Source of the DNA: a virus
Length of the DNA: 64,000 nucleotides
Strand: one strand, 5' to 3'
Virus record (IMG/VR): IMGVR_UViG_3300037310_000404
Coordinates: 62,998-126,997 of that record
Shown: positions 26,789-63,000 of the stretch, piece after piece
Numbering within the stretch: position 1 is the stretch's first letter
How the letters are laid out: each line of letters opens with the position of its first letter
The notes under the pieces: generated by a model
Databases searched by the model: none
What the model saw: only the letters and a program-made list of their open reading frames with translations
What the model was told of the DNA's origin: nothing
Made by a program: the position numbers and the translations under genes

Positions 26789-26884
26789 GGGGGCGACAGG
26801 TTTCGACGGGAGAAGTGAACGATAGGACGCATGCCGGGGGATGCTCAAGATACCTCGTTAAAAATTTCTAGGGCACAGAGAACT

Positions 26885-26914
26885 GCTGAAGACGCAGAAC
26901 TCCTAGCAGCTTAA
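26885..26914 (+). other. tmRNA tag reading frame (A)AEDAELLAA*
   Basis: GCT resume codon after AGAACT; ends LAA-TAA. Confidence 0.8.
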
Positions 26915-27113
26915 TTGCTGCACTCAACATGGGGACTCCTCTAACTATGTATGAGCCGCAGAGGATAGGATCAGAACAAAGCTTATTTCGCCAATCAGCT
27001 TACTTGTCTGATCTGAAATAAAGAGCGAAAGTGGCAAAAAGTGTTGCCGGACCTGAAAACCGGATAAGCATGTAGTTGGTCTACCAGGATCATCTTTCGG
27101 ACGTGGGTTCGAT

Positions 27114-27711
27114 TAAGGAGCCGATAAGCTATGAAGATTGAATATCTAGCTGGCATAATAGATGTGGAAGGCACCATGTCTATATTTATGGATGGCGGTA
27201 AAATGGTTCCATCCATAACGGTTGCCAATACCAACAAAAAACTGCTAGATGAAATCTTCAAATTCCTTAAAGCGAACGGAGTAAAATCCGAAATATGTAT
27301 GCATAAAGCAAGATCGGCGAGGCATAAAGACTCATACAGCCTGAGAGTCAGATGGAATGCCGCGATAAGACTTGCCAGCATGCTAGACGGATTTCTGATA
27401 ATCAAAACAGAACAATGCAAATTGCTTGTTAATGATTTTCGGAAAAGGACTCCGAGAAATGGCAAATATTCGCAAGGAATGCTGGCTAGCAAAAATAAGT
27501 TGATAGCCAGGTTTAGAAAGCTCAACAGTCGCGGTGTATAGTAATATACACATGAAAAATTCTCTCTGATTGACTTGGAAGCCCTGAAGAGGGTGACAAG
27601 GCGGAAGGCCTAAAGCCACCGTGAACGACTAAGCGAGAGAACATCCTATAACAAGGATGATGCGATAGTCTAAGCTGCATGTATAACAAAATAAGATGCA
27701 GGAAAGTGCTG
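27114..27711 (+). mobile_element. Group I intron in the tmRNA T-loop
   Basis: 5' exon ends in U and intron ends in G; P3 TTCTCTC/GAGAGAA (27560-66/27635-41); P7 GACTA/TAGTC (27627-31/27666-70); P2, P8 and P9 hairpins. Confidence 0.9.
27131..27541 (+). CDS. Single-motif LAGLIDADG homing endonuclease
   Basis: YLAGIIDVEGTMSI; SD AAGGAG at the intron 5' end. Confidence 0.92.
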   Translation: MKIEYLAGIIDVEGTMSIFMDGGKMVPSITVANTNKKLLDEIFKFLKANGVKSEICMHKARSARHKDSYSLRVRWNAAIRLASMLDGFLIIKTEQCKLLVNDFRKRTPRNGKYSQGMLASKNKLIARFRKLNSRGV

Positions 27712-27744
27712 TCCCACCGCCTCCACCAATTTTAAAGCAGGGCT

Positions 27745-28398
27745 ATGAACATAGCGACCTTAAAGCAGTATGACAAAATATGTCTTGTGGATGTTGGTTT
27801 TCACAAGGGGCATTTTGTCAACGACTTCATCCGGGATCATGGCTTTGATAGAAGTAAAATGAGGGTCATTGCTATAGATCCGATTAAGCACAATCAGGGC
27901 TCATATGACGAATTCCATCAGGTTGCTATATCGACTGAGCCTGGCAGGGCTAAATTCAATATCTATGACGAGCCCGGCTGCAACTCCTTACACGATCTGC
28001 AAACAGGAAAAATGGTCGATAAGATAAATCACGAGGGTTGGTACTGTAGATATCCAATCAAAAAGATTGACGAGATAGAAGTGGATGTGGTCAGGCTTGA
28101 TACGATACTCGAAACATTACAGGAGCCAATCATACACTTTCTAAAGGTAGATGCGTAAGGTAATGATTTGAACGTGATTAAAAGCGCCGGTAACATGTTA
28201 GATAGGGTTATATTTATACAGATGGAGAGCAGTGTCGCGCAAAATCCAAACGAAATCATGTATAGCGGTCAGACATTGATCAACGATGACCTAGAATACA
28301 TGAAGAGTCGAGGTTTTGAAGTAGTGAGCATAACCGACTATTCGCACCAAGCGCCACCAGAGGCGAATGTTTTGCTTTACAATAAGAGATTTTCGTAG
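27745..28398 (+). pseudogene. FkbM-family methyltransferase with an in-frame TAA at 28156-28158
   Basis: VDVGFHKG...AIDPI...HFLKVDA*GNDLNVIKSAG continues in the same frame. Confidence 0.75.
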
Positions 28399-30406: not shown

Positions 30407-30731
30407 CCAGCTGCCGGACGTAGATAAAAAAGCGTTCATCATAGATAGTAGCAAAGATGAGACAGATAGATTACTTGATCTATTTAGATTAGCTGGCAAA
30501 AATGTAGAAAATATAGGCAGCATATTTGTCATGCTAGTCGAAAACGCTCCCGTGCCGGACAGCCTAGAGATAGACTCAACGGTTGGGGGCGATTTTGTTT
30601 ATGTGTATACCGATGATGATTCTAGGCTGTTGTTGAATCAGCTTGATACATGCGTTTATGACCCGGTATACAAAAGAGTTATAGGTAGCATTGTAAAGAC
30701 AGAGCTCCTATTAGGGAAAAAAGCATTATGA
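30384..30731 (+). CDS. Hypothetical protein
   Basis: 115-aa ORF; start uncertain. Confidence 0.6.
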   Translation: MPKKLPSNQLPDVDKKAFIIDSSKDETDRLLDLFRLAGKNVENIGSIFVMLVENAPVPDSLEIDSTVGGDFVYVYTDDDSRLLLNQLDTCVYDPVYKRVIGSIVKTELLLGKKAL

Positions 30732-31537
30732 GCACAAAGCCTCAATCAATATCTATATCCGAAAGAATGAAGACATACTACGAGCACCGCACAAGGGCGT
30801 ATTTGCCCCGCAGGTCTTATTCCATATTGAGACTAGACGGGCGCTCATTTCATAACTTTACAAAAACCATCGGAGCTGTAAAGCCATACGACCGAGACCT
30901 TATGAGCCGCATGGACCTTACGGCCAAATATCTTTGCGCCAACATACAGGGCGCTAAATTAGCATATGTCCAATCCGATGAGATTTCGATTCTTATGACC
31001 GATTTTGATGCTATACAAACGCAGGCATGGTTTGATGGCAATATCCAGAAGATCGTGTCCGTTTCCGCTTCGATGGCCGCAGGATTCTTTAATTCCATTA
31101 GCAAGGGAACATTCGGATCCAATCCATACGACAATGTTGAAAAGTATCAGGGAATGGATGTGAATGATTGGATCGTGGTAGCTGATAAAGAGCTAGCCGC
31201 TTTTGATGCTAGAGTGTTCACGATTCCAGACAAAGTAGAGGTTTATAATTATTTTGTCTGGCGTATACAAGATTGGGAATCAAATAGCTTACAGATGCTT
31301 GCCAGAAGCTATTACAACCAAAGCGATCTTCACGGCAAAAGCTGGGACGAGTTACAGTCTATGATCGTTGCTTCTGGCGGAGATTGGCACAAGCTCGATC
31401 CGGAACTTAAATACGGCAGAATCTGCAGCACTCGTCTGGGCGGCATGTGGGGAACCTATGCTGCTCCAGATCTTCATGATCCAAAACAAAAAGAAGAATT
31501 TAAAAAACTGATTCCGGAGCACGGCTATGAGCTCTAA
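30728..31537 (+). CDS. tRNA(His) guanylyltransferase Thg1-like protein
   Basis: RLDGRSFH, YVQSDEIS, WFDG.IQKI.S, FDAR, NYFVWR. Confidence 0.92.
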   Translation: MSTKPQSISISERMKTYYEHRTRAYLPRRSYSILRLDGRSFHNFTKTIGAVKPYDRDLMSRMDLTAKYLCANIQGAKLAYVQSDEISILMTDFDAIQTQAWFDGNIQKIVSVSASMAAGFFNSISKGTFGSNPYDNVEKYQGMDVNDWIVVADKELAAFDARVFTIPDKVEVYNYFVWRIQDWESNSLQMLARSYYNQSDLHGKSWDELQSMIVASGGDWHKLDPELKYGRICSTRLGGMWGTYAAPDLHDPKQKEEFKKLIPEHGYEL

Positions 31538-33224: not shown

Positions 33225-33995
33225 ATGGCTGTTATCATTAAAACACCTAACCAGATAGAGCTAATGAGCCAGGCCGGTTCAGTGGTTGCAAAAGTATTAG
33301 ACAAAGTGGCTCAAAACTGCAAGTCTGGTGTATCGACATATTACTTAAACAAGATAGCGAATAGGGAGCTTCGTGAAAACGGGGCTCTTTCTTCTTTTTT
33401 GGGCTATTCTCCTCATCCGGGCGCAGTTCCCTATCCTGCCGTGATATGTGCCTCTGTGAATAGCGTCGTGGTTCATGGTATTCCGAATAAAGATATTATT
33501 CTTGCAGACGGGGATATCATAGGCATCGATTTCGCTTGCCATAAAGACGGATGGTGCGCCGACGCAGCCATCACGGTAGGGGTCGGAGAAATATCCACGG
33601 AAAGAAAAAAAATAATCCAAGCCACTAAGGAGTGCTTGGATATGGCAATTGAAAAGTGCGTGATCGGAAACACTCTGGGGGATATAGGTCACACAATTTA
33701 TGAGCACGCAAAGAAAAACAGTTTCGATGTCGTCAAAACATTCTCCGGCCACGGCATAGGGAAAAGCATGCACGAAGAGCCTTCGGTTTTTAACATTGGA
33801 AATCCTGGCGCTGGGATGAAGCTTGAAGAGGGAATGGTTATTGCCATAGAACCAATGTTGACAGCTGGCACGGACGAAGTTTTTATAGACTCTGACAAGT
33901 GGACAGTGAAAACCAAGGATGGACATGACTCGGCCCACTTTGAGCATTCAGTAGCAATAACTCAAAATGGGCCTAAGATTTTAACAGTTATTTAG
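33225..33995 (+). CDS. map: Methionine aminopeptidase type I
   Basis: SVNSVVVHGIP, DAAIT, GHGIG...HEEP, IAIEPM, SAHFEH. Confidence 0.96.
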   Translation: MAVIIKTPNQIELMSQAGSVVAKVLDKVAQNCKSGVSTYYLNKIANRELRENGALSSFLGYSPHPGAVPYPAVICASVNSVVVHGIPNKDIILADGDIIGIDFACHKDGWCADAAITVGVGEISTERKKIIQATKECLDMAIEKCVIGNTLGDIGHTIYEHAKKNSFDVVKTFSGHGIGKSMHEEPSVFNIGNPGAGMKLEEGMVIAIEPMLTAGTDEVFIDSDKWTVKTKDGHDSAHFEHSVAITQNGPKILTVI

Positions 33996-34980
33996 TTTTC
34001 TTTTTTTCGTCGTCATACTTTTCAAATCTAGCAACAATATCCTTAACAACAGCAGATCTAACAACGTCACTCTTATCAAAAGTTACAATAGACGTATACG
34101 GAGAGTCCTTCAGGATTTCTGCTACCGTATCCAGAGAATTCTTTTTGTTGAATGACAGATCCGATTGCCTAGAATCACCGCAAAATATTATTTTTGAATT
34201 TGGATGATCACCCAACCTGGTCAGCATTAGATAGAAATTTTTCAGCTCGACATTTTCGCTTTCATCTACGATTGTTATAACTCCCTCAAAGTTTCCAAGG
34301 GTAATACCACGGGCATATGCGATTGGCAAAATCTCTATAGCGCCCTTCTCTATATACTTATCTCTCTTTTCTTTACCTATTAGCTCCTCGAATATTGAAT
34401 TTATTGGGAGCAAGAAAGGGGACATTTTTTCATCTATATCTCCTGGAAGAAATCCGAAATCTTCAGAAGTAATAGCCGGTCTAGTAATGACTATCTTTTT
34501 AATCATTCTTTTTTCCAAGAACTTCAACGCAATTGCACAAGCCAAAAATGTTTTTCCAACGCCAGCCTCGCCATTGGCAAAAATGATCTGACGGCCAATG
34601 ACGCCATCGATCAATTGTTTTTGGTGCTCTGTTTTTGGTTGGATGGTATGAATTCTGTCGCCATCATTGAAGTCCAATTTATGCCAATTAGTTGATGGCG
34701 GAGCAGAGCCGGGGTAGGCTTTATTATGAAGAATGACATCGCCGATATCTTTTAGAGTCACAGCGTCACCCATGCTCGATAATCCATGAAACTTATTAAC
34801 GAGTTCGAGAGTAAGACCCTTATCGCCCTTGACTACAAGTAGTCCTACTCGATTTATATTAAACTTAATATTATATGCTTCTTCTATTTTTTTGAATACA
34901 TCGTCCTGTGGGTTATTTTGGTATATTTGTGTTATTATATCTTTTGTCTGCAGAGTTAACTTACGAGTTGATTTAGACAT
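33988..34980 (-). CDS. phoH: PhoH-like ATPase
   Basis: GEAGVGKTFLA, TRPAI, GFLPGD, IVDESEN, LTRLG, GDSRQSD. Confidence 0.93.
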   Translation of the reverse strand: MSKSTRKLTLQTKDIITQIYQNNPQDDVFKKIEEAYNIKFNINRVGLLVVKGDKGLTLELVNKFHGLSSMGDAVTLKDIGDVILHNKAYPGSAPPSTNWHKLDFNDGDRIHTIQPKTEHQKQLIDGVIGRQIIFANGEAGVGKTFLACAIALKFLEKRMIKKIVITRPAITSEDFGFLPGDIDEKMSPFLLPINSIFEELIGKEKRDKYIEKGAIEILPIAYARGITLGNFEGVITIVDESENVELKNFYLMLTRLGDHPNSKIIFCGDSRQSDLSFNKKNSLDTVAEILKDSPYTSIVTFDKSDVVRSAVVKDIVARFEKYDDEKKKTK

Positions 34981-40647: not shown

Positions 40648-41583
40648 ATGGAACAGAACAAACCTACCGATTGTGGAGTTATTGTAGGACGATTTCAGGT
40701 CCCATATCTTCACGAGGGCCACAAAGAATTAATTGACGCAATTTTGGCCCGACACAAGAAAGTCGCTATCTTTCTTGGTATCACCCCAACAAAAAATACA
40801 ACTCGCAACCCGCTTGATTTCGCGACCCGGAAAGCCATGATCCAAAGTGCTTATCCGGGCGTTATTATTTTGCCCATTAATGATGTGGGCAACGATAGGG
40901 CATGGTCTGAAATATTAGATCATAAGATACGGGAAGTATTTCACACCGAAACCGTTACGCTTTATGGTTCAAGAGATGGATTCATTCCTGCATATGTCGG
41001 AAAGTTTCCAAAAGCAGAACTGCAGGAGACGAAGAAAATATCAGGGTCGGAGATAAGGTCGTGGATCAAGGACGATGTCAGAAATTCAGAAGACTTTAGA
41101 AGGGGTGTCATCTATGCATCGTTTAACAAATACCCAATAACTTATACAACTGTCGATGCAGCAATTATGGATGATCACGGGAACGTCTTATTGGCAAGAA
41201 AAAAACATGATGAAGCCGGTAAGTATCGTTTTATCGGTGGATTCGTAAACAAAAACCAGGATGATTCCCTGGAAGAAGCAGTGAAAAGGGAGGTGATGGA
41301 AGAAACCAATAGTCTCGCAGTTTCTGAACCTGTTTACATCGGTAGCGCAAAAATAGACGACTGGCGTTACAAAAACGAGGAAGATGGAATTATGACAACC
41401 TTCTTCGCGATGCAGTACATGTTCGGAAGACCAGAGGCATCTGATGATATTGACGAAGTGAAATGGTTCAATATCGAAAAGTTGGTCGAAACTGAAGGCT
41501 ATCAGCTAGTTAAAGAGCACAGAGTTCTACTAAATCTACTCAAAGCGCATCTAGAAAAAAGAGCGCAGAAAAAGGGAGAGTAA
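40648..41583 (+). CDS. nadM: Bifunctional NMN adenylyltransferase/Nudix hydrolase
   Basis: GRFQVPYLHEGH, RNPL, SGSEIR; Nudix GGFV...AVKREVMEET. Confidence 0.92.
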   Translation: MEQNKPTDCGVIVGRFQVPYLHEGHKELIDAILARHKKVAIFLGITPTKNTTRNPLDFATRKAMIQSAYPGVIILPINDVGNDRAWSEILDHKIREVFHTETVTLYGSRDGFIPAYVGKFPKAELQETKKISGSEIRSWIKDDVRNSEDFRRGVIYASFNKYPITYTTVDAAIMDDHGNVLLARKKHDEAGKYRFIGGFVNKNQDDSLEEAVKREVMEETNSLAVSEPVYIGSAKIDDWRYKNEEDGIMTTFFAMQYMFGRPEASDDIDEVKWFNIEKLVETEGYQLVKEHRVLLNLLKAHLEKRAQKKGE

Positions 41584-41586
41584 GCC

Positions 41587-42978
41587 ATGAGAAAGAATAT
41601 AATTTTAATGACAGACAGCTACAAGCTGTCGCACCATAAGCAGTATCCAGAAAATACCACTAACATCTACAGTTATTTCGAAAGCAGGATCGGTGCAAAA
41701 TACAACGAGACCGTTTTTTTTGGTCTTCAATATTTCCTCAAAGAATACTTTGATGGAGTCGTTGTAACGAAAGAAAAGCTTGAACAAGCCAAGAAGCTTG
41801 CCGATACACACGTTGGCCCCGGCATCTTCAACTATGATGGATGGAAATATATCACAGAAAAACATAATGGCAAATTACCGCTCAGGATCAAGGCTGTCCC
41901 AGAAGGAACACCGGTAACAGTAAGCAACGTGCTTATGACTGTCGAAGTTACTGATCCCAAGTGTTATTGGCTCACAAACTACGTAGAAACTTTATTAGTT
42001 CAAGTATGGTATCCAAGCGTGGTAGCGAGCTTGTCCAGACACAACAAGAAAACAATTTTGAAATACCTTGAAGAAACTGGGGACCCAAACGGTATCATGT
42101 TCAAGCTACATGATTTTGGGTATCGTGGTGTTTCCAGCAATGAAAGCGCTAGCCTGGGCGGAGCGGCTCATTTGGTTAACTTCATGGGCACCGATACTAT
42201 AGCTGGTATTACGATGCTCGAAGACTATTATGCCGCAGACCAAATGCCTGGATTCAGCATACCCGCATCTGAGCATAGCACCATCACTAGCTGGACACGG
42301 GCTGGCGAGGTTGACGCCATGAGAAACATGTTGACTCAATACCCAAAAGGCCTAGTCGCTTGCGTTTCTGATAGCTGGGACATCATTAATGCTTGCCGCA
42401 ATCTCTGGGGCGGGGATCTCAGGGATCTTGTTCTTGCAAGAGACGGTGTTTTGGTTGTCCGCCCAGATTCTGGAGATCCGGTAAAGTTGCTACCGGAGGT
42501 TCTGTCGACTCTTGGCGATAGATTTGGAACTTATGTCAACAGTAAGGGGTTTAGAGTTCTTAACGATAAGGTCCGGGTTATCCAGGGAGACGGAATCACG
42601 CCAGAGAGCATCCCGGTCATTCTGGAAGAGCTAAAGAGATGCGGTTGGTCTGCTGACAATCTAGCATTCGGCTCTGGCGGCGGGTTACTCCAAAAGGTCG
42701 ATCGAGATACTAATAGATTTGCATTCAAATGTTCAGAGGCAATTGTGGGCGGCATACCCCGAGAGGTATTTAAACAACCAATCACAGACGGAACAAAGAA
42801 TTCGAAAAAAGGAAGGCTGAAACTGATACGCGTCGATGGCAAGTTCGTAACCGTTAACGAGAATGAGCCCGGGGATGATATCCTTGAGACTGTTTTTGAA
42901 AATGGCGAAATTGTCAAGACGTATACTTTGTCAGAAGTCAGAGACAATGCAGCCATAAAAGAGAGCGTATTAGCCTAG
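41587..42978 (+). CDS. nadV: Nicotinamide phosphoribosyltransferase
   Basis: TDSYKLSH, LHDFGYRG, PASEHS, VSDSWD, VVRPDSGDP, QGDG, FGSGG. Confidence 0.95.
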   Translation: MRKNIILMTDSYKLSHHKQYPENTTNIYSYFESRIGAKYNETVFFGLQYFLKEYFDGVVVTKEKLEQAKKLADTHVGPGIFNYDGWKYITEKHNGKLPLRIKAVPEGTPVTVSNVLMTVEVTDPKCYWLTNYVETLLVQVWYPSVVASLSRHNKKTILKYLEETGDPNGIMFKLHDFGYRGVSSNESASLGGAAHLVNFMGTDTIAGITMLEDYYAADQMPGFSIPASEHSTITSWTRAGEVDAMRNMLTQYPKGLVACVSDSWDIINACRNLWGGDLRDLVLARDGVLVVRPDSGDPVKLLPEVLSTLGDRFGTYVNSKGFRVLNDKVRVIQGDGITPESIPVILEELKRCGWSADNLAFGSGGGLLQKVDRDTNRFAFKCSEAIVGGIPREVFKQPITDGTKNSKKGRLKLIRVDGKFVTVNENEPGDDILETVFENGEIVKTYTLSEVRDNAAIKESVLA

Positions 42979-47874: not shown

Positions 47875-48973
47875 TTAATTTTTAATAAAAACGCAATCTT
47901 TTATCAACTCATCAATGTCGCCATTTAATATTTTCTCAACCCCATATTCTCTGCCAGTCCTTTCATCTTTTACAATTTGTCTGCCATAAACCAAATAAGT
48001 TCTAATCTGATGTCCAAAACTAACATCATCTTTCTCGCCAGCCAATGCCCTCTCTTCCTTCTTAATATTCGATTCTTCTAGATATATTAGTCTAGATTTT
48101 AGTTCGTCCATGGCTATTTCACGATTTTCGTTTTGTGATCTAGTGGTTTGGCATTTTACCGTGATACCAGATGGGATGTGTTTAATTCTAACAGCCGTCT
48201 CCACCTTATTGACATTTTGACCACCTTTACCACCAGACCTAAAAAAATCTATCTCTATATCCGATTTTGGTATTTTTATATCTTTTTGTTCTCTATCAAT
48301 CACTGGCACAATATCCACACGAGCAAATGAAGTCTGCCTTCTCTGGTTTGCGTCAAAAGGAGAAATTCGCATGAGTCTATGCACCCCTGATTCGCGTCTT
48401 AATTTTCCATATACGTAATTTCCGTCTATCCTGAAAGTAACAGTTTTGATCCCAGCCACTTCTCCTGGTTGCTTATTAATTATAGATATATTGAGACCAT
48501 TCTTTTCCGCCCATCTGGAGTACATGCGCAATAGTATCTTAACCCAATCCTGGCTCTCTGTCCCGCCAGCTCCGGATTGGATAGTCAGAATAGCACTGTT
48601 TTTATCATATAGTCCAGAAAAAGCCCGCATACGGTCTATATCGTCAAGAGCAGATGCGAGTTTGATGATGTTAGTATCGAGCTCGCGGGCTATCCCTTGA
48701 TCGTCATGGTTCTCTAGGATCTCAATGGCATAAGCTATATTATCCAGCATAGAGGCTAAAGCTCTATATCGGTTCAGGTCTTCTCTTGTCGAGTTTATTT
48801 GTATTTGTTTTTGTTTCGCAGTCTTATTATCTAACCAAAAATTTTTTGACTGCATCTCAAATTCGAGGCGTGCTATTAAAGCCTCTTTGGATGAAACATC
48901 AAAGGAACTCCTGGCACTCCTTAACGCGGAGCGCAAGATTCTGGTATACATTTTTCAGCTTATTGTCCAACAT
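47875..48973 (-). CDS. prfB: Peptide chain release factor 2 with programmed +1 frameshift
   Basis: SPF and GGQ motifs; 24-codon first frame from ATG 48973 (SD AAGGAG) ends CTT TGA, and the +1 frame continues DVSSKEA. Confidence 0.93.
48898..48912 (-). promoter_or_regulatory. prfB +1 frameshift cassette
   Basis: AGGAG-TTC-CTT-TGA-T (internal SD 3 nt before the slippery CTT). Confidence 0.9.
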
Positions 48974-62296: not shown

Positions 62297-63000
62297 TATT
62301 TTTCCATATAAAAAGCAAAATCTTTGACAATAGCCGGTAGACTTTCGTTACTATCGTATATATCCTGTAGCCTTTTTGCTCCTTCTGCCATTTTCCTGAA
62401 CTTCTCGAAGCTTGTTCCGGCCAAGGCTATTTGTTCTGGAGTCATGGTATTTTCTATATATTCCACATAAGCCTTGATCATATAATGGCTTAGATGTGAA
62501 AGCTTACCAATAACTTCATCATGGGTTATGGCATTAATCTTTGTGGTTTTGAATCCCAGATCACGCCAAAATCTAGCTATTGGATGATTATCCAAATCGA
62601 TATCGCCAGAAATATCGTCGCTTATAATGATGCAGTTCTTGTTCCAATCCAAAATATCCCAATCGCCAGCAAGAGGTCCGACCATTGGATGAACAGACTT
62701 ATACGCATCGGAACCATGTGATAACGCTGCATATTTTCTGCACAAATCCCCTTTGACGCTACCTATTTCAGAAACATAGGTTCTATCAAGACGCATACTG
62801 TATAGTTTTTGTATAATCTGAGGAATAACTGATATAGGAGTAGCAATTATCACATGATTAATTTCACCAGCAACCTCTTCAATTTCTATCTCATCTCCAA
62901 TATCAAATACTTTAACTGGCCCATAGAACCTCTCGATTCTTTGTTTTAAAAGCTGGCCCATTACGCCATTGCCGACAATATAAGTTCTAGAGAATTTCAT
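62296..63000 (-). CDS. tyrA: Prephenate/arogenate dehydrogenase-like protein
   Basis: IVGNGVMG, IIATPI, EIGSVK, HPMVGP, HDEVIGKLSHLSH. Confidence 0.8.
   Translation of the reverse strand: MKFSRTYIVGNGVMGQLLKQRIERFYGPVKVFDIGDEIEIEEVAGEINHVIIATPISVIPQIIQKLYSMRLDRTYVSEIGSVKGDLCRKYAALSHGSDAYKSVHPMVGPLAGDWDILDWNKNCIIISDDISGDIDLDNHPIARFWRDLGFKTTKINAITHDEVIGKLSHLSHYMIKAYVEYIENTMTPEQIALAGTSFEKFRKMAEGAKRLQDIYDSNESLPAIVKDFAFYMEK

Follow-up and report, generated by a model that had tools for sequence, protein, structure and literature searches.

The 64,000-nucleotide (nt) stretch of viral DNA analysed here (hereafter the window), which is the second half (positions 62,998 to 126,997) of the 126,997-base IMG/VR record IMGVR_UViG_3300037310_000404, with a CheckV completeness of 66%, contains a transfer-messenger RNA (tmRNA) gene that is interrupted in its T-loop by a compact group I intron of 598 nt. 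This intron carries a LAGLIDADG homing endonuclease gene in the loop (L1) of its first helix, P1. The explanation that we favour, with a probability of roughly 85%, is that a phage tmRNA is interrupted at T-loop subsite 7 by an element able to splice and to home. The anatomy of this element, its homology, the covariation of its helices and the insertion point of its open reading frame (ORF) are directly observed, and from these, by analogy with known systems, we infer splicing, the activity of the endonuclease and its target.

A tmRNA gene interrupted in the T-loop

The tmRNA model of Rfam (RF00023) matches positions 26796-27115 of the window with 78.9 bits, against a gathering cut-off of 47, and its alignment ends in the T-loop, the 3′ strand of the T-stem and the 3′ acceptor strand being absent from it. 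Exon 1 (26789-27113, + strand, as are all parts of the tmRNA gene and of its intron), supported by this match and by ARAGORN after in-silico splicing, holds the 5′ acceptor strand, in which G3 pairs with U27722, the pseudoknot body, the tag reading frame, the 5′ strand of the T-stem and nucleotides 1-6 of the T-loop. The 17 bases of exon 2 (27712-27728) begin with a U, nucleotide 7 of the T-loop; those after it are complementary first to the 5′ T-stem and then to the 5′ acceptor strand, one of them being the U that partners G3, and an encoded ACCA closes the exon. The interruption lies between loop nucleotides 6 and 7.

On the raw window, ARAGORN reports a tRNA-Ser only and no tmRNA, and the unspliced stretch likewise yields no tmRNA call. 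With positions 27114-27711 deleted, the same program reports a complete tmRNA of 342 nt, with the resume codon GCU and the tag AEDAELLAA*. On the spliced sequence, the tag reading frame extends from this resume codon to the stop codon UAA (26885-26914) and encodes AEDAELLAA; the resume codon has the same position in the Rfam alignment as in the ARAGORN call. The complete tRNA-like domain (a 7-bp acceptor stem with the G3-U pair, a T-arm and CCA), together with the tag frame, is present only once 27114-27711 has been removed. A preliminary description of this DNA had located the interruption in the T-loop and had claimed that its removal restores the T-arm and the acceptor stem; both claims are confirmed by these results, and all its coordinates (exons 26789-27113 and 27712-27728, intron 27114-27711, hence a length of 598 nt) are exact.

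Intron boundaries and the insertion of an ORF in the P1 loop

The intron (27114-27711) lies at the position called subsite 7 in a published survey of intron-form tmRNAs (PMC11915505). The base before it is U27113 and its final base is G27711 (omega G); the intron ends in G in all 10 relatives too. A junction shifted by one base to the right would leave the mature RNA identical but would violate the terminal-G rule.

P1 is formed by four exon bases together with the first intron base (27110-27114) and by the internal guide sequence AGUCG (27527-27531), with a U-G wobble between U27113 and G27528. The unconstrained minimum-energy fold of 27095-27728 (z = -7.65) shows P1, P2, P3, P4, P5, P6, P8 and P9, and recovers P1 across 415 nt. 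GUCG is invariant in all relatives, and the pairing of CGAU with GUCG, the U preceding the splice site (U-1) and the terminal G are present in 10/10 tmRNA-type relatives, six of which have an L1 of only 8-10 nt. In the window, GUCG (27528-27531) is followed by P2, a hairpin of 7 bp with a GUAA loop (27534-27551) that includes the stop codon of the endonuclease gene, and then by the joiner to P3. All seven pairs of P2 are altered on both sides among six tmRNA-type introns. The minimum-energy fold also contains an extension of P1 (27118-27121 with 27520-27523), specific to the window, which partly covers the Shine-Dalgarno-like sequence described below; no counterpart was recognised by eye in L125, the sole relative inspected, and nothing is built upon this extension here.

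The endonuclease gene (27131-27541) encodes 136 amino acids and occupies the P1 loop. A Shine-Dalgarno-like AAGGAG (27115-27120), recognised by reading the sequence, stands directly past the 5′ splice site and 10 nt before the ATG, and the final codons of the ORF overlap the 3′ strand of P1 and the 5′ strand of P2. This arrangement recurs in four other contigs or groups of contigs (L125, L129-131, L132-134 and L135-136), in all of which the split in the tmRNA or tmRNA-like gene is at the site used in the window, and the endonuclease gene opens just past the splice site and is followed by GUCG, a hairpin and a window-type core. The gene context is bacterial in L129-131, while L132-134 and L135-136 are AT-rich and have adjacent tRNA genes. 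A metagenome scan anchored on the guide sequence and the core retrieved ORF-less versions of this intron, 187-196 nt long, in tmRNA genes (L128/L291, L283, L304, L313, L314 and L289), with only 8-10 nt from the splice site to GUCG. One of these sequences, L283, forms a natural allele pair with the ORF-bearing L129: their exons 1 are 99.4% identical over 332 nt and their intron cores 91% identical, and in the same tmRNA L1 measures 10 nt in L283 and 451 nt in L129. The comparison of the two alleles shows that the endonuclease gene was inserted into the P1 loop.

The tmRNA identity of L128, L129, L283, L304, L313 and L135, and also of L259 and L261 (discussed below), is given by Rfam or ARAGORN. 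L314 has an ARAGORN tmRNA call with a score under the Rfam cut-off, the label of L132 is read from the acceptor stem and T-arm alone, and L125 is cut by the end of its contig. In L313, a small metagenomic contig, a match to a YrlA-like Y RNA (514-644, - strand; 42.4 bits, cut-off 69) and tRNA genes lie beside the intron-bearing tmRNA. The preliminary description had paired the exon CGAU with a GUCG about 415 nt away and had placed the ORF in L1. The first proposal is supported by the fold and by the same pairing in 10 relatives, and the second by the fold, the short L1 of the ORF-less forms and the L129/L283 pair.

The catalytic core and its relatives in phage genes

The catalytic core (27560-27701) comprises P3 (27560-27566 with 27635-27641), P4 (27574-27577 with 27597-27600), P5 (27581-27584 with 27591-27594), P6 (27601-27604 with 27619-27622), P7 (27625 and 27627-27634 with 27662-27671, C27626 being bulged), P8 (27642-27647 with 27654-27659) and P9 (27675-27680 with 27696-27701). 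These helices were evaluated on an alignment of 55 distinct cores, the window included. Taken together with the P3/P7 pseudoknot, P3-P9 amount to 36 pairs, with 99.2% of the cells paired and double changes in 19 pairs. The cells with double changes number 313, compared to 88.5 in shuffles (none of 500 being as high) and at most 53 with slid partners. On the same alignment, RNAalifold supports P3, P4, P5, P6, P8 and P9, and the covariation also holds for the tmRNA-type subset of six sequences. In P7, the pair G27627-C27670 is invariant in the 55 sequences beside the bulged C27626, and the flanking pair 27625-27671 covaries; an invariant G-C pair next to a bulged base in P7 is typical of the guanosine-binding site of group I introns. 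The window carries all 51 invariant columns of the alignment, and a nhmmer profile built from the other 54 introns matches its core with 106.6 bits (E = 4.6e-31), which is far beyond chance. The core of P3, P7, P8 and P9, described earlier as intact, is thus upheld by covariation across the 55 sequences and, for P3, P8 and P9, also by the fold. P5abc and P7.1/7.2 are absent from this intron.

Searches with blastn against GenBank phages found the core to be 80% identical over about 115 nt in two records, and both matches fall between the halves of split genes, a P22-like coat gene (MW202674) and the ribonucleotide reductase (RNR) gene of Roseobacter phage CRP-118. In the coat intron L001, the predicted splice sites fuse two annotated coat ORFs in frame. 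A 19-nt core motif is present in at least 120 IMG/VR contigs, among which tmRNA signatures upstream of the motif occur in the window only. In the core tree, a clade with support 97/96 unites the ten tmRNA-type introns with one gene-type sequence inside the family of phage gene introns. The phage gene introns (for example the MW202674 coat and CRP-118 RNR introns, both ORF-less) have a P3-P9 core homologous to that of the window, with covarying helices in common. They interrupt protein genes, they are without P2, so that the guide sequence stands directly before the A-rich joiner to P3, they have extra hairpins past P9 and their ORF, when one is carried, lies in the P6 loop region, whereas the window intron has P2, a short tail and its ORF in L1. 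The window core belongs to a lineage that is common in phage protein-coding genes, and not to that of the common bacterial tmRNA intron. A separate observation concerns a single viral contig (L056:6090-7021, - strand), in which three introns of this core family lie within about 900 nt of one P22-like coat gene.

The LAGLIDADG protein

The encoded protein has a match to PF14528 (LAGLIDADG_3) of 25.1 bits (cut-off 22.5), and its family profile, compared with PDB, retrieves I-MsoI with an E-value of 1.1e-8 over residues 3-137, that is, over the full length, as well as I-CvuI and I-CreI. These profile matches assign it to the I-MsoI/I-CreI-type class of single-motif, putatively homodimeric enzymes. 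With these three it shares the possession of one LAGLIDADG motif and a size in the range of about 140-170 amino acids, and it differs from them by a low identity, by a C-terminal NSRG that overlaps the guide sequence and by a valine at motif position 7. An exhaustive HMMER search returned 523 homologues. The window protein is full length and keeps all six invariant residues of the family; its motif reads DVEG, with the catalytic Glu present. Among the 119 homologues with a readable motif, position 7 is occupied by G (88), A (26), S (3), T (1) or V (1, the window protein itself). The family-conserved NSRG is encoded by the very bases that form the P1 guide sequence, and the free-standing copy in L128 shows one synonymous difference in the bases that encode it.

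Proposed mechanism and alternative explanations

According to the explanation that we favour, a tmRNA precursor would be transcribed together with the upstream dUTPase gene, and the intron would fold into P1-P9. An external guanosine would then attack past U27113, held by the U-G wobble of P1, and the freed exon would attack past G27711; joining the two exons would make the 7-nt T-loop, T-stem and acceptor stem whole again in a 342-nt tmRNA with the tag AEDAELLAA. The homodimer-type enzyme of 136 residues would be made from its own ribosome-binding site in the P1 loop and, by analogy with such enzymes, would cleave tmRNA genes that lack the intron, at a site within the T-arm or close to it, with the intron being copied in (homing). 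Because ribosomes translating the last codons would open both P1 and P2, a given molecule should be either translated or spliced, and not both.

Several observations weigh against this explanation. P1 has four exon pairs only, in which covariation is impossible because the exon is fixed, and a P10 pairing was not found. The general group I model of Rfam (RF00028), a type of model suggested as a check in the preliminary description, gives the intron 11.6 bits (cut-off 50, E = 5.6). It also fails to detect the related introns of the coat and RNR genes (L001 and L002), and its seed is without bacterial sequences (10.1101/2020.01.27.920355); it is judged insensitive for this intron lineage rather than evidence against an intron. 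The extra P9 hairpins of the gene-type relatives are absent in the window, as they are in the other tmRNA-type members. A SmpB gene was not found in the 127-kb record (66% complete by estimate); SmpB of the host could serve the phage tmRNA. Sigma-factor and endonuclease searches of viral contigs retrieved no close relative of the phage, and a word-indexed protein search returned the query protein itself only. Exact tmRNA-specific patterns had no match in viral contigs or metagenomes, and the intron-less alleles of this tmRNA that the preliminary description had proposed to look for were not found there. In addition, the valine at motif position 7 may weaken the activity of the endonuclease.

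This valine is the starting point of an alternative that we consider unlikely, although it deserves attention, in which the intron splices and the endonuclease is inactive or decaying, so that the element would be a fixed and immobile passenger. The residue replaces the Gly/Ala that precedes the catalytic acidic residue and is unique among the 119 homologues; its equivalent in I-CreI is G19, a residue of the dimer interface, and the engineered forms among the PDB matches include G19S variants. The decay of endonucleases after fixation has moreover been described in reviews (PMC3984707). Nevertheless, the ORF is full length, without stop codon or frameshift, with the six invariant residues kept and a good ribosome-binding site. 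It is quite improbable that the insert as a whole no longer splices and that the phage tmRNA is a pseudogene. The score of RF00028 under its cut-off, the short P1 and the missing P10 would fit such a loss, but the helices are intact, the 51 invariant columns are all shared, U-1 and the terminal G are present, and the undamaged exons yield a complete tmRNA. Furthermore, relatives with an equally short P1 are widespread among the tmRNA genes of bacteria, on which trans-translation presumably depends.

Two further alternatives appear highly improbable to us. As the contig is metagenomic and this type of intron is also found in bacterial contexts (L128, near smpB, and L129), a bacterial tmRNA-intron region could have been joined to phage DNA by misassembly. 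However, the tmRNA gene begins one base past the stop codon of the dUTPase gene, which itself lies in an unbroken run of small genes on the same strand, with phage-type genes on both sides; therefore, a misassembly is unlikely. The core is also present in a single copy in the record, and other AT-rich contigs with tRNA clusters share the arrangement. The ORF could also lie in P2 or in another peripheral loop, with P1 using a different guide such as 27499-27503, where UCGAU can form a 5-bp alternative with GUUGA (at 27499). In all relatives, however, GUCG and the covarying P2 are found at one place, and in the ORF-less forms only 8-10 nt lead to GUCG; the alternative guide sequences were rejected on these comparative grounds.

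Relationship to known tmRNA introns

T-loop group I introns in tmRNA genes, some of them with LAGLIDADG genes, are an established kind of element. Intron-form tmRNA was reportedly first described in Clostridium botulinum. A survey of bacterial and archaeal genomes, in which no phage case is mentioned, collected 883 unique intron-form tmRNA sequences from 21 phyla, all interrupted in the T-loop, mostly at subsite 7, with catalogued subsites 2, 3, 7 or 8 (PMC11915505). In the same survey, LAGLIDADG genes were present in 23/844, located in the P7.1 region (19) or past P9 (4). The preliminary description had stated that T-loop introns are known from a few bacterial tmRNAs, which these 883 sequences contradict. 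It had also suspected that a viral, endonuclease-bearing example is rare. Endonuclease-bearing ones had already been published; the rarity of viral ones is compatible with our literature search, in which no report of an intron in a phage tmRNA was found, and is qualified by at least two other phage-like metagenomic contigs (L132 and L135) that share the arrangement of the window.

The bacterial intron-form tmRNAs resemble the window in the host gene, in the use of subsite 7, in the boundary rules (U-1:G in P1 and a terminal G) and, for some of them, in carrying LAGLIDADG genes. Species-representative bacterial genomes were scanned for a T-arm followed by the start of an intron, which gave at least 120 loci, many of them in Bacillaceae and in metagenome-assembled genomes of Gammaproteobacteria, with introns mostly of 250-430 nt. 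This common bacterial type is similar to the window intron in its GUCG, its following hairpin (often with a 4-nt loop), its A-rich joiner and its short 3′ tail. It differs in its extra helices between P3′ and P8 and in its core lineage. The published positions of endonuclease genes, P7.1 or after P9, also differ from the L1 position in the window. Neither the core motif of the window (0/120) nor a match to the family profile (0/120) was found among the common-type bacterial loci, so two unrelated cores occupy one T-loop subsite. Their common P1-P2 front end and tail could be due to recombination (a core swap) or to convergence on one exon context. The likeness of the front ends was read from L137-L256 compared with L128, L283, L304 and L314. 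Two common-type tmRNA introns, L192 and L211 (Oceanobacillus alkalisoli and Bacillus sp. Marseille-Q3570), carry in the P5/P6 region an additional insert of some 150 nt that has no ORF of endonuclease length.

A tmRNA gene with an ORF-less intron of the window type would measure about 545 bp. Because this is also the size of the smallest intron form mentioned in the survey, the core lineage of the window may already be in its database (PMC11915505). What appears to be new is the phage setting, the core lineage, the endonuclease in L1 and the series of arrangements around tmRNA genes.

Endonuclease relatives around tmRNA genes

The genomic contexts of the 10 nearest homologues of the endonuclease were inspected, DNA being readable for 9 of them and the tenth (P0003) having no DNA on file. 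In 9/9 readable contexts, a tmRNA gene adjoins or contains the endonuclease relative, in several different ways. In L126 and L259, the endonuclease gene is free-standing, 13-20 nt past an intact, intron-less tmRNA. In L257, it is also free-standing and follows a 72-nt tRNA-like gene that ARAGORN calls a tRNA with anticodon UUA, its tmRNA-like label coming solely from our reading of the 5′ end and the acceptor stem. In L128, the free-standing gene lies past a tmRNA whose intron is of the window type and has no ORF. The gene is found inside L1 of a window-type intron in the window, L125, L129, L132 and L135, and in L261 it is found downstream of P3 within an intron of the common bacterial type, which corresponds to the published arrangement.

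In the tree of the endonuclease proteins, free-standing and embedded forms are mixed, without polarity. Because this tree cannot order them, no direction of evolution among the arrangements is claimed. The series would fit the models of collaborative homing and endonuclease invasion reviewed in PMC3984707, and in these settings the predicted target is a non-coding RNA gene common to bacteria and phages. A broader and tentative idea, to which we give somewhat less than even odds, is that this endonuclease family is tied to the tmRNA T-arm and not to any one intron, and that it travels between bacterial and phage genomes in four configurations: as a free-standing gene past a tmRNA that has no intron, as one past a tmRNA whose intron is ORF-less, within L1 of that intron, and within a different type of intron. 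The window would then represent the end state of a stepwise assembly, and its intron would be a hybrid, combining a core of the phage gene type with the P1-P2 front end of the common bacterial tmRNA intron.

The tRNA-like gene of L257 (1917-1988) also exists in L258 (861-932). It is 72 nt long, with a tmRNA-style 5′ end, a G3-U acceptor stem and the ARAGORN anticodon UUA, and it is part of a phage tRNA cluster, 13 nt upstream of the free-standing endonuclease relative. It may be a tag-less mini-tmRNA like that reported for phage DS6A.

Phage identity and gene neighbourhood

The window is probably part of the genome of a large tailed phage with a tmRNA gene of its own. The phage call is based on the label given by IMG/VR, on a baseplate wedge protein and on auxiliary genes typical of large phages. 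The first half of the record encodes the baseplate wedge protein (E = 3.8e-31) and glycosyltransferases. The genes of the window include PhoH, NAMPT with a NMNAT/Nudix partner, ThyA, dUTPase, a Thg1-like enzyme and a release-factor-like protein. The Pfam families Terminase_6N, TerL_ATPase, HK97 capsid and sheath had no match in the 127-kb record; the terminase, capsid and sheath genes may be divergent or located in the missing third of the genome.

Several of these genes are worth noting separately. The release-factor-like protein with an RF-1 domain (47875-48951, - strand), the Thg1-like tRNA-His guanylyltransferase (30728-31537, +), the NAMPT and NMNAT/Nudix pair (40648-42978, +) and PhoH (33988-34980, -) form, together with the tmRNA, a sizeable set for translation rescue and RNA repair. 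Just downstream of the tmRNA, a gene for a FkbM-type methyltransferase (27745-28398, +) contains a single in-frame TAA (28156-28158), which may reflect a nonsense mutation, an error in sequencing or recoding. This codon falls at what we take to be the conserved acidic residue of the family.

Implications for mobile introns in tmRNA genes

With a phage-encoded tmRNA as carrier, viruses can be expected to bring the intron and its endonuclease from one host to another with a nearly identical T-arm in its tmRNA. If the endonuclease family is indeed tied to the T-arm, a nearly universal target, the phage enzyme could cut the tmRNA gene of the host as well. The presence of two unrelated cores at one subsite is direct evidence of repeated and independent invasion, one of the two cores deriving from introns of phage structural and nucleotide-metabolism genes. 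Since the endonuclease gene lies in L1 and its final codons also serve as the guide sequence, translation and splicing would be tightly coupled. Finally, a natural series is available in which the endonuclease is free-standing, stands beside an ORF-less intron or lies inside the intron, together with an ORF-plus/ORF-minus pair in one tmRNA. This series allows the collaborative-homing model of how mobile introns arise to be tested on an RNA gene that is small and easy to assay.

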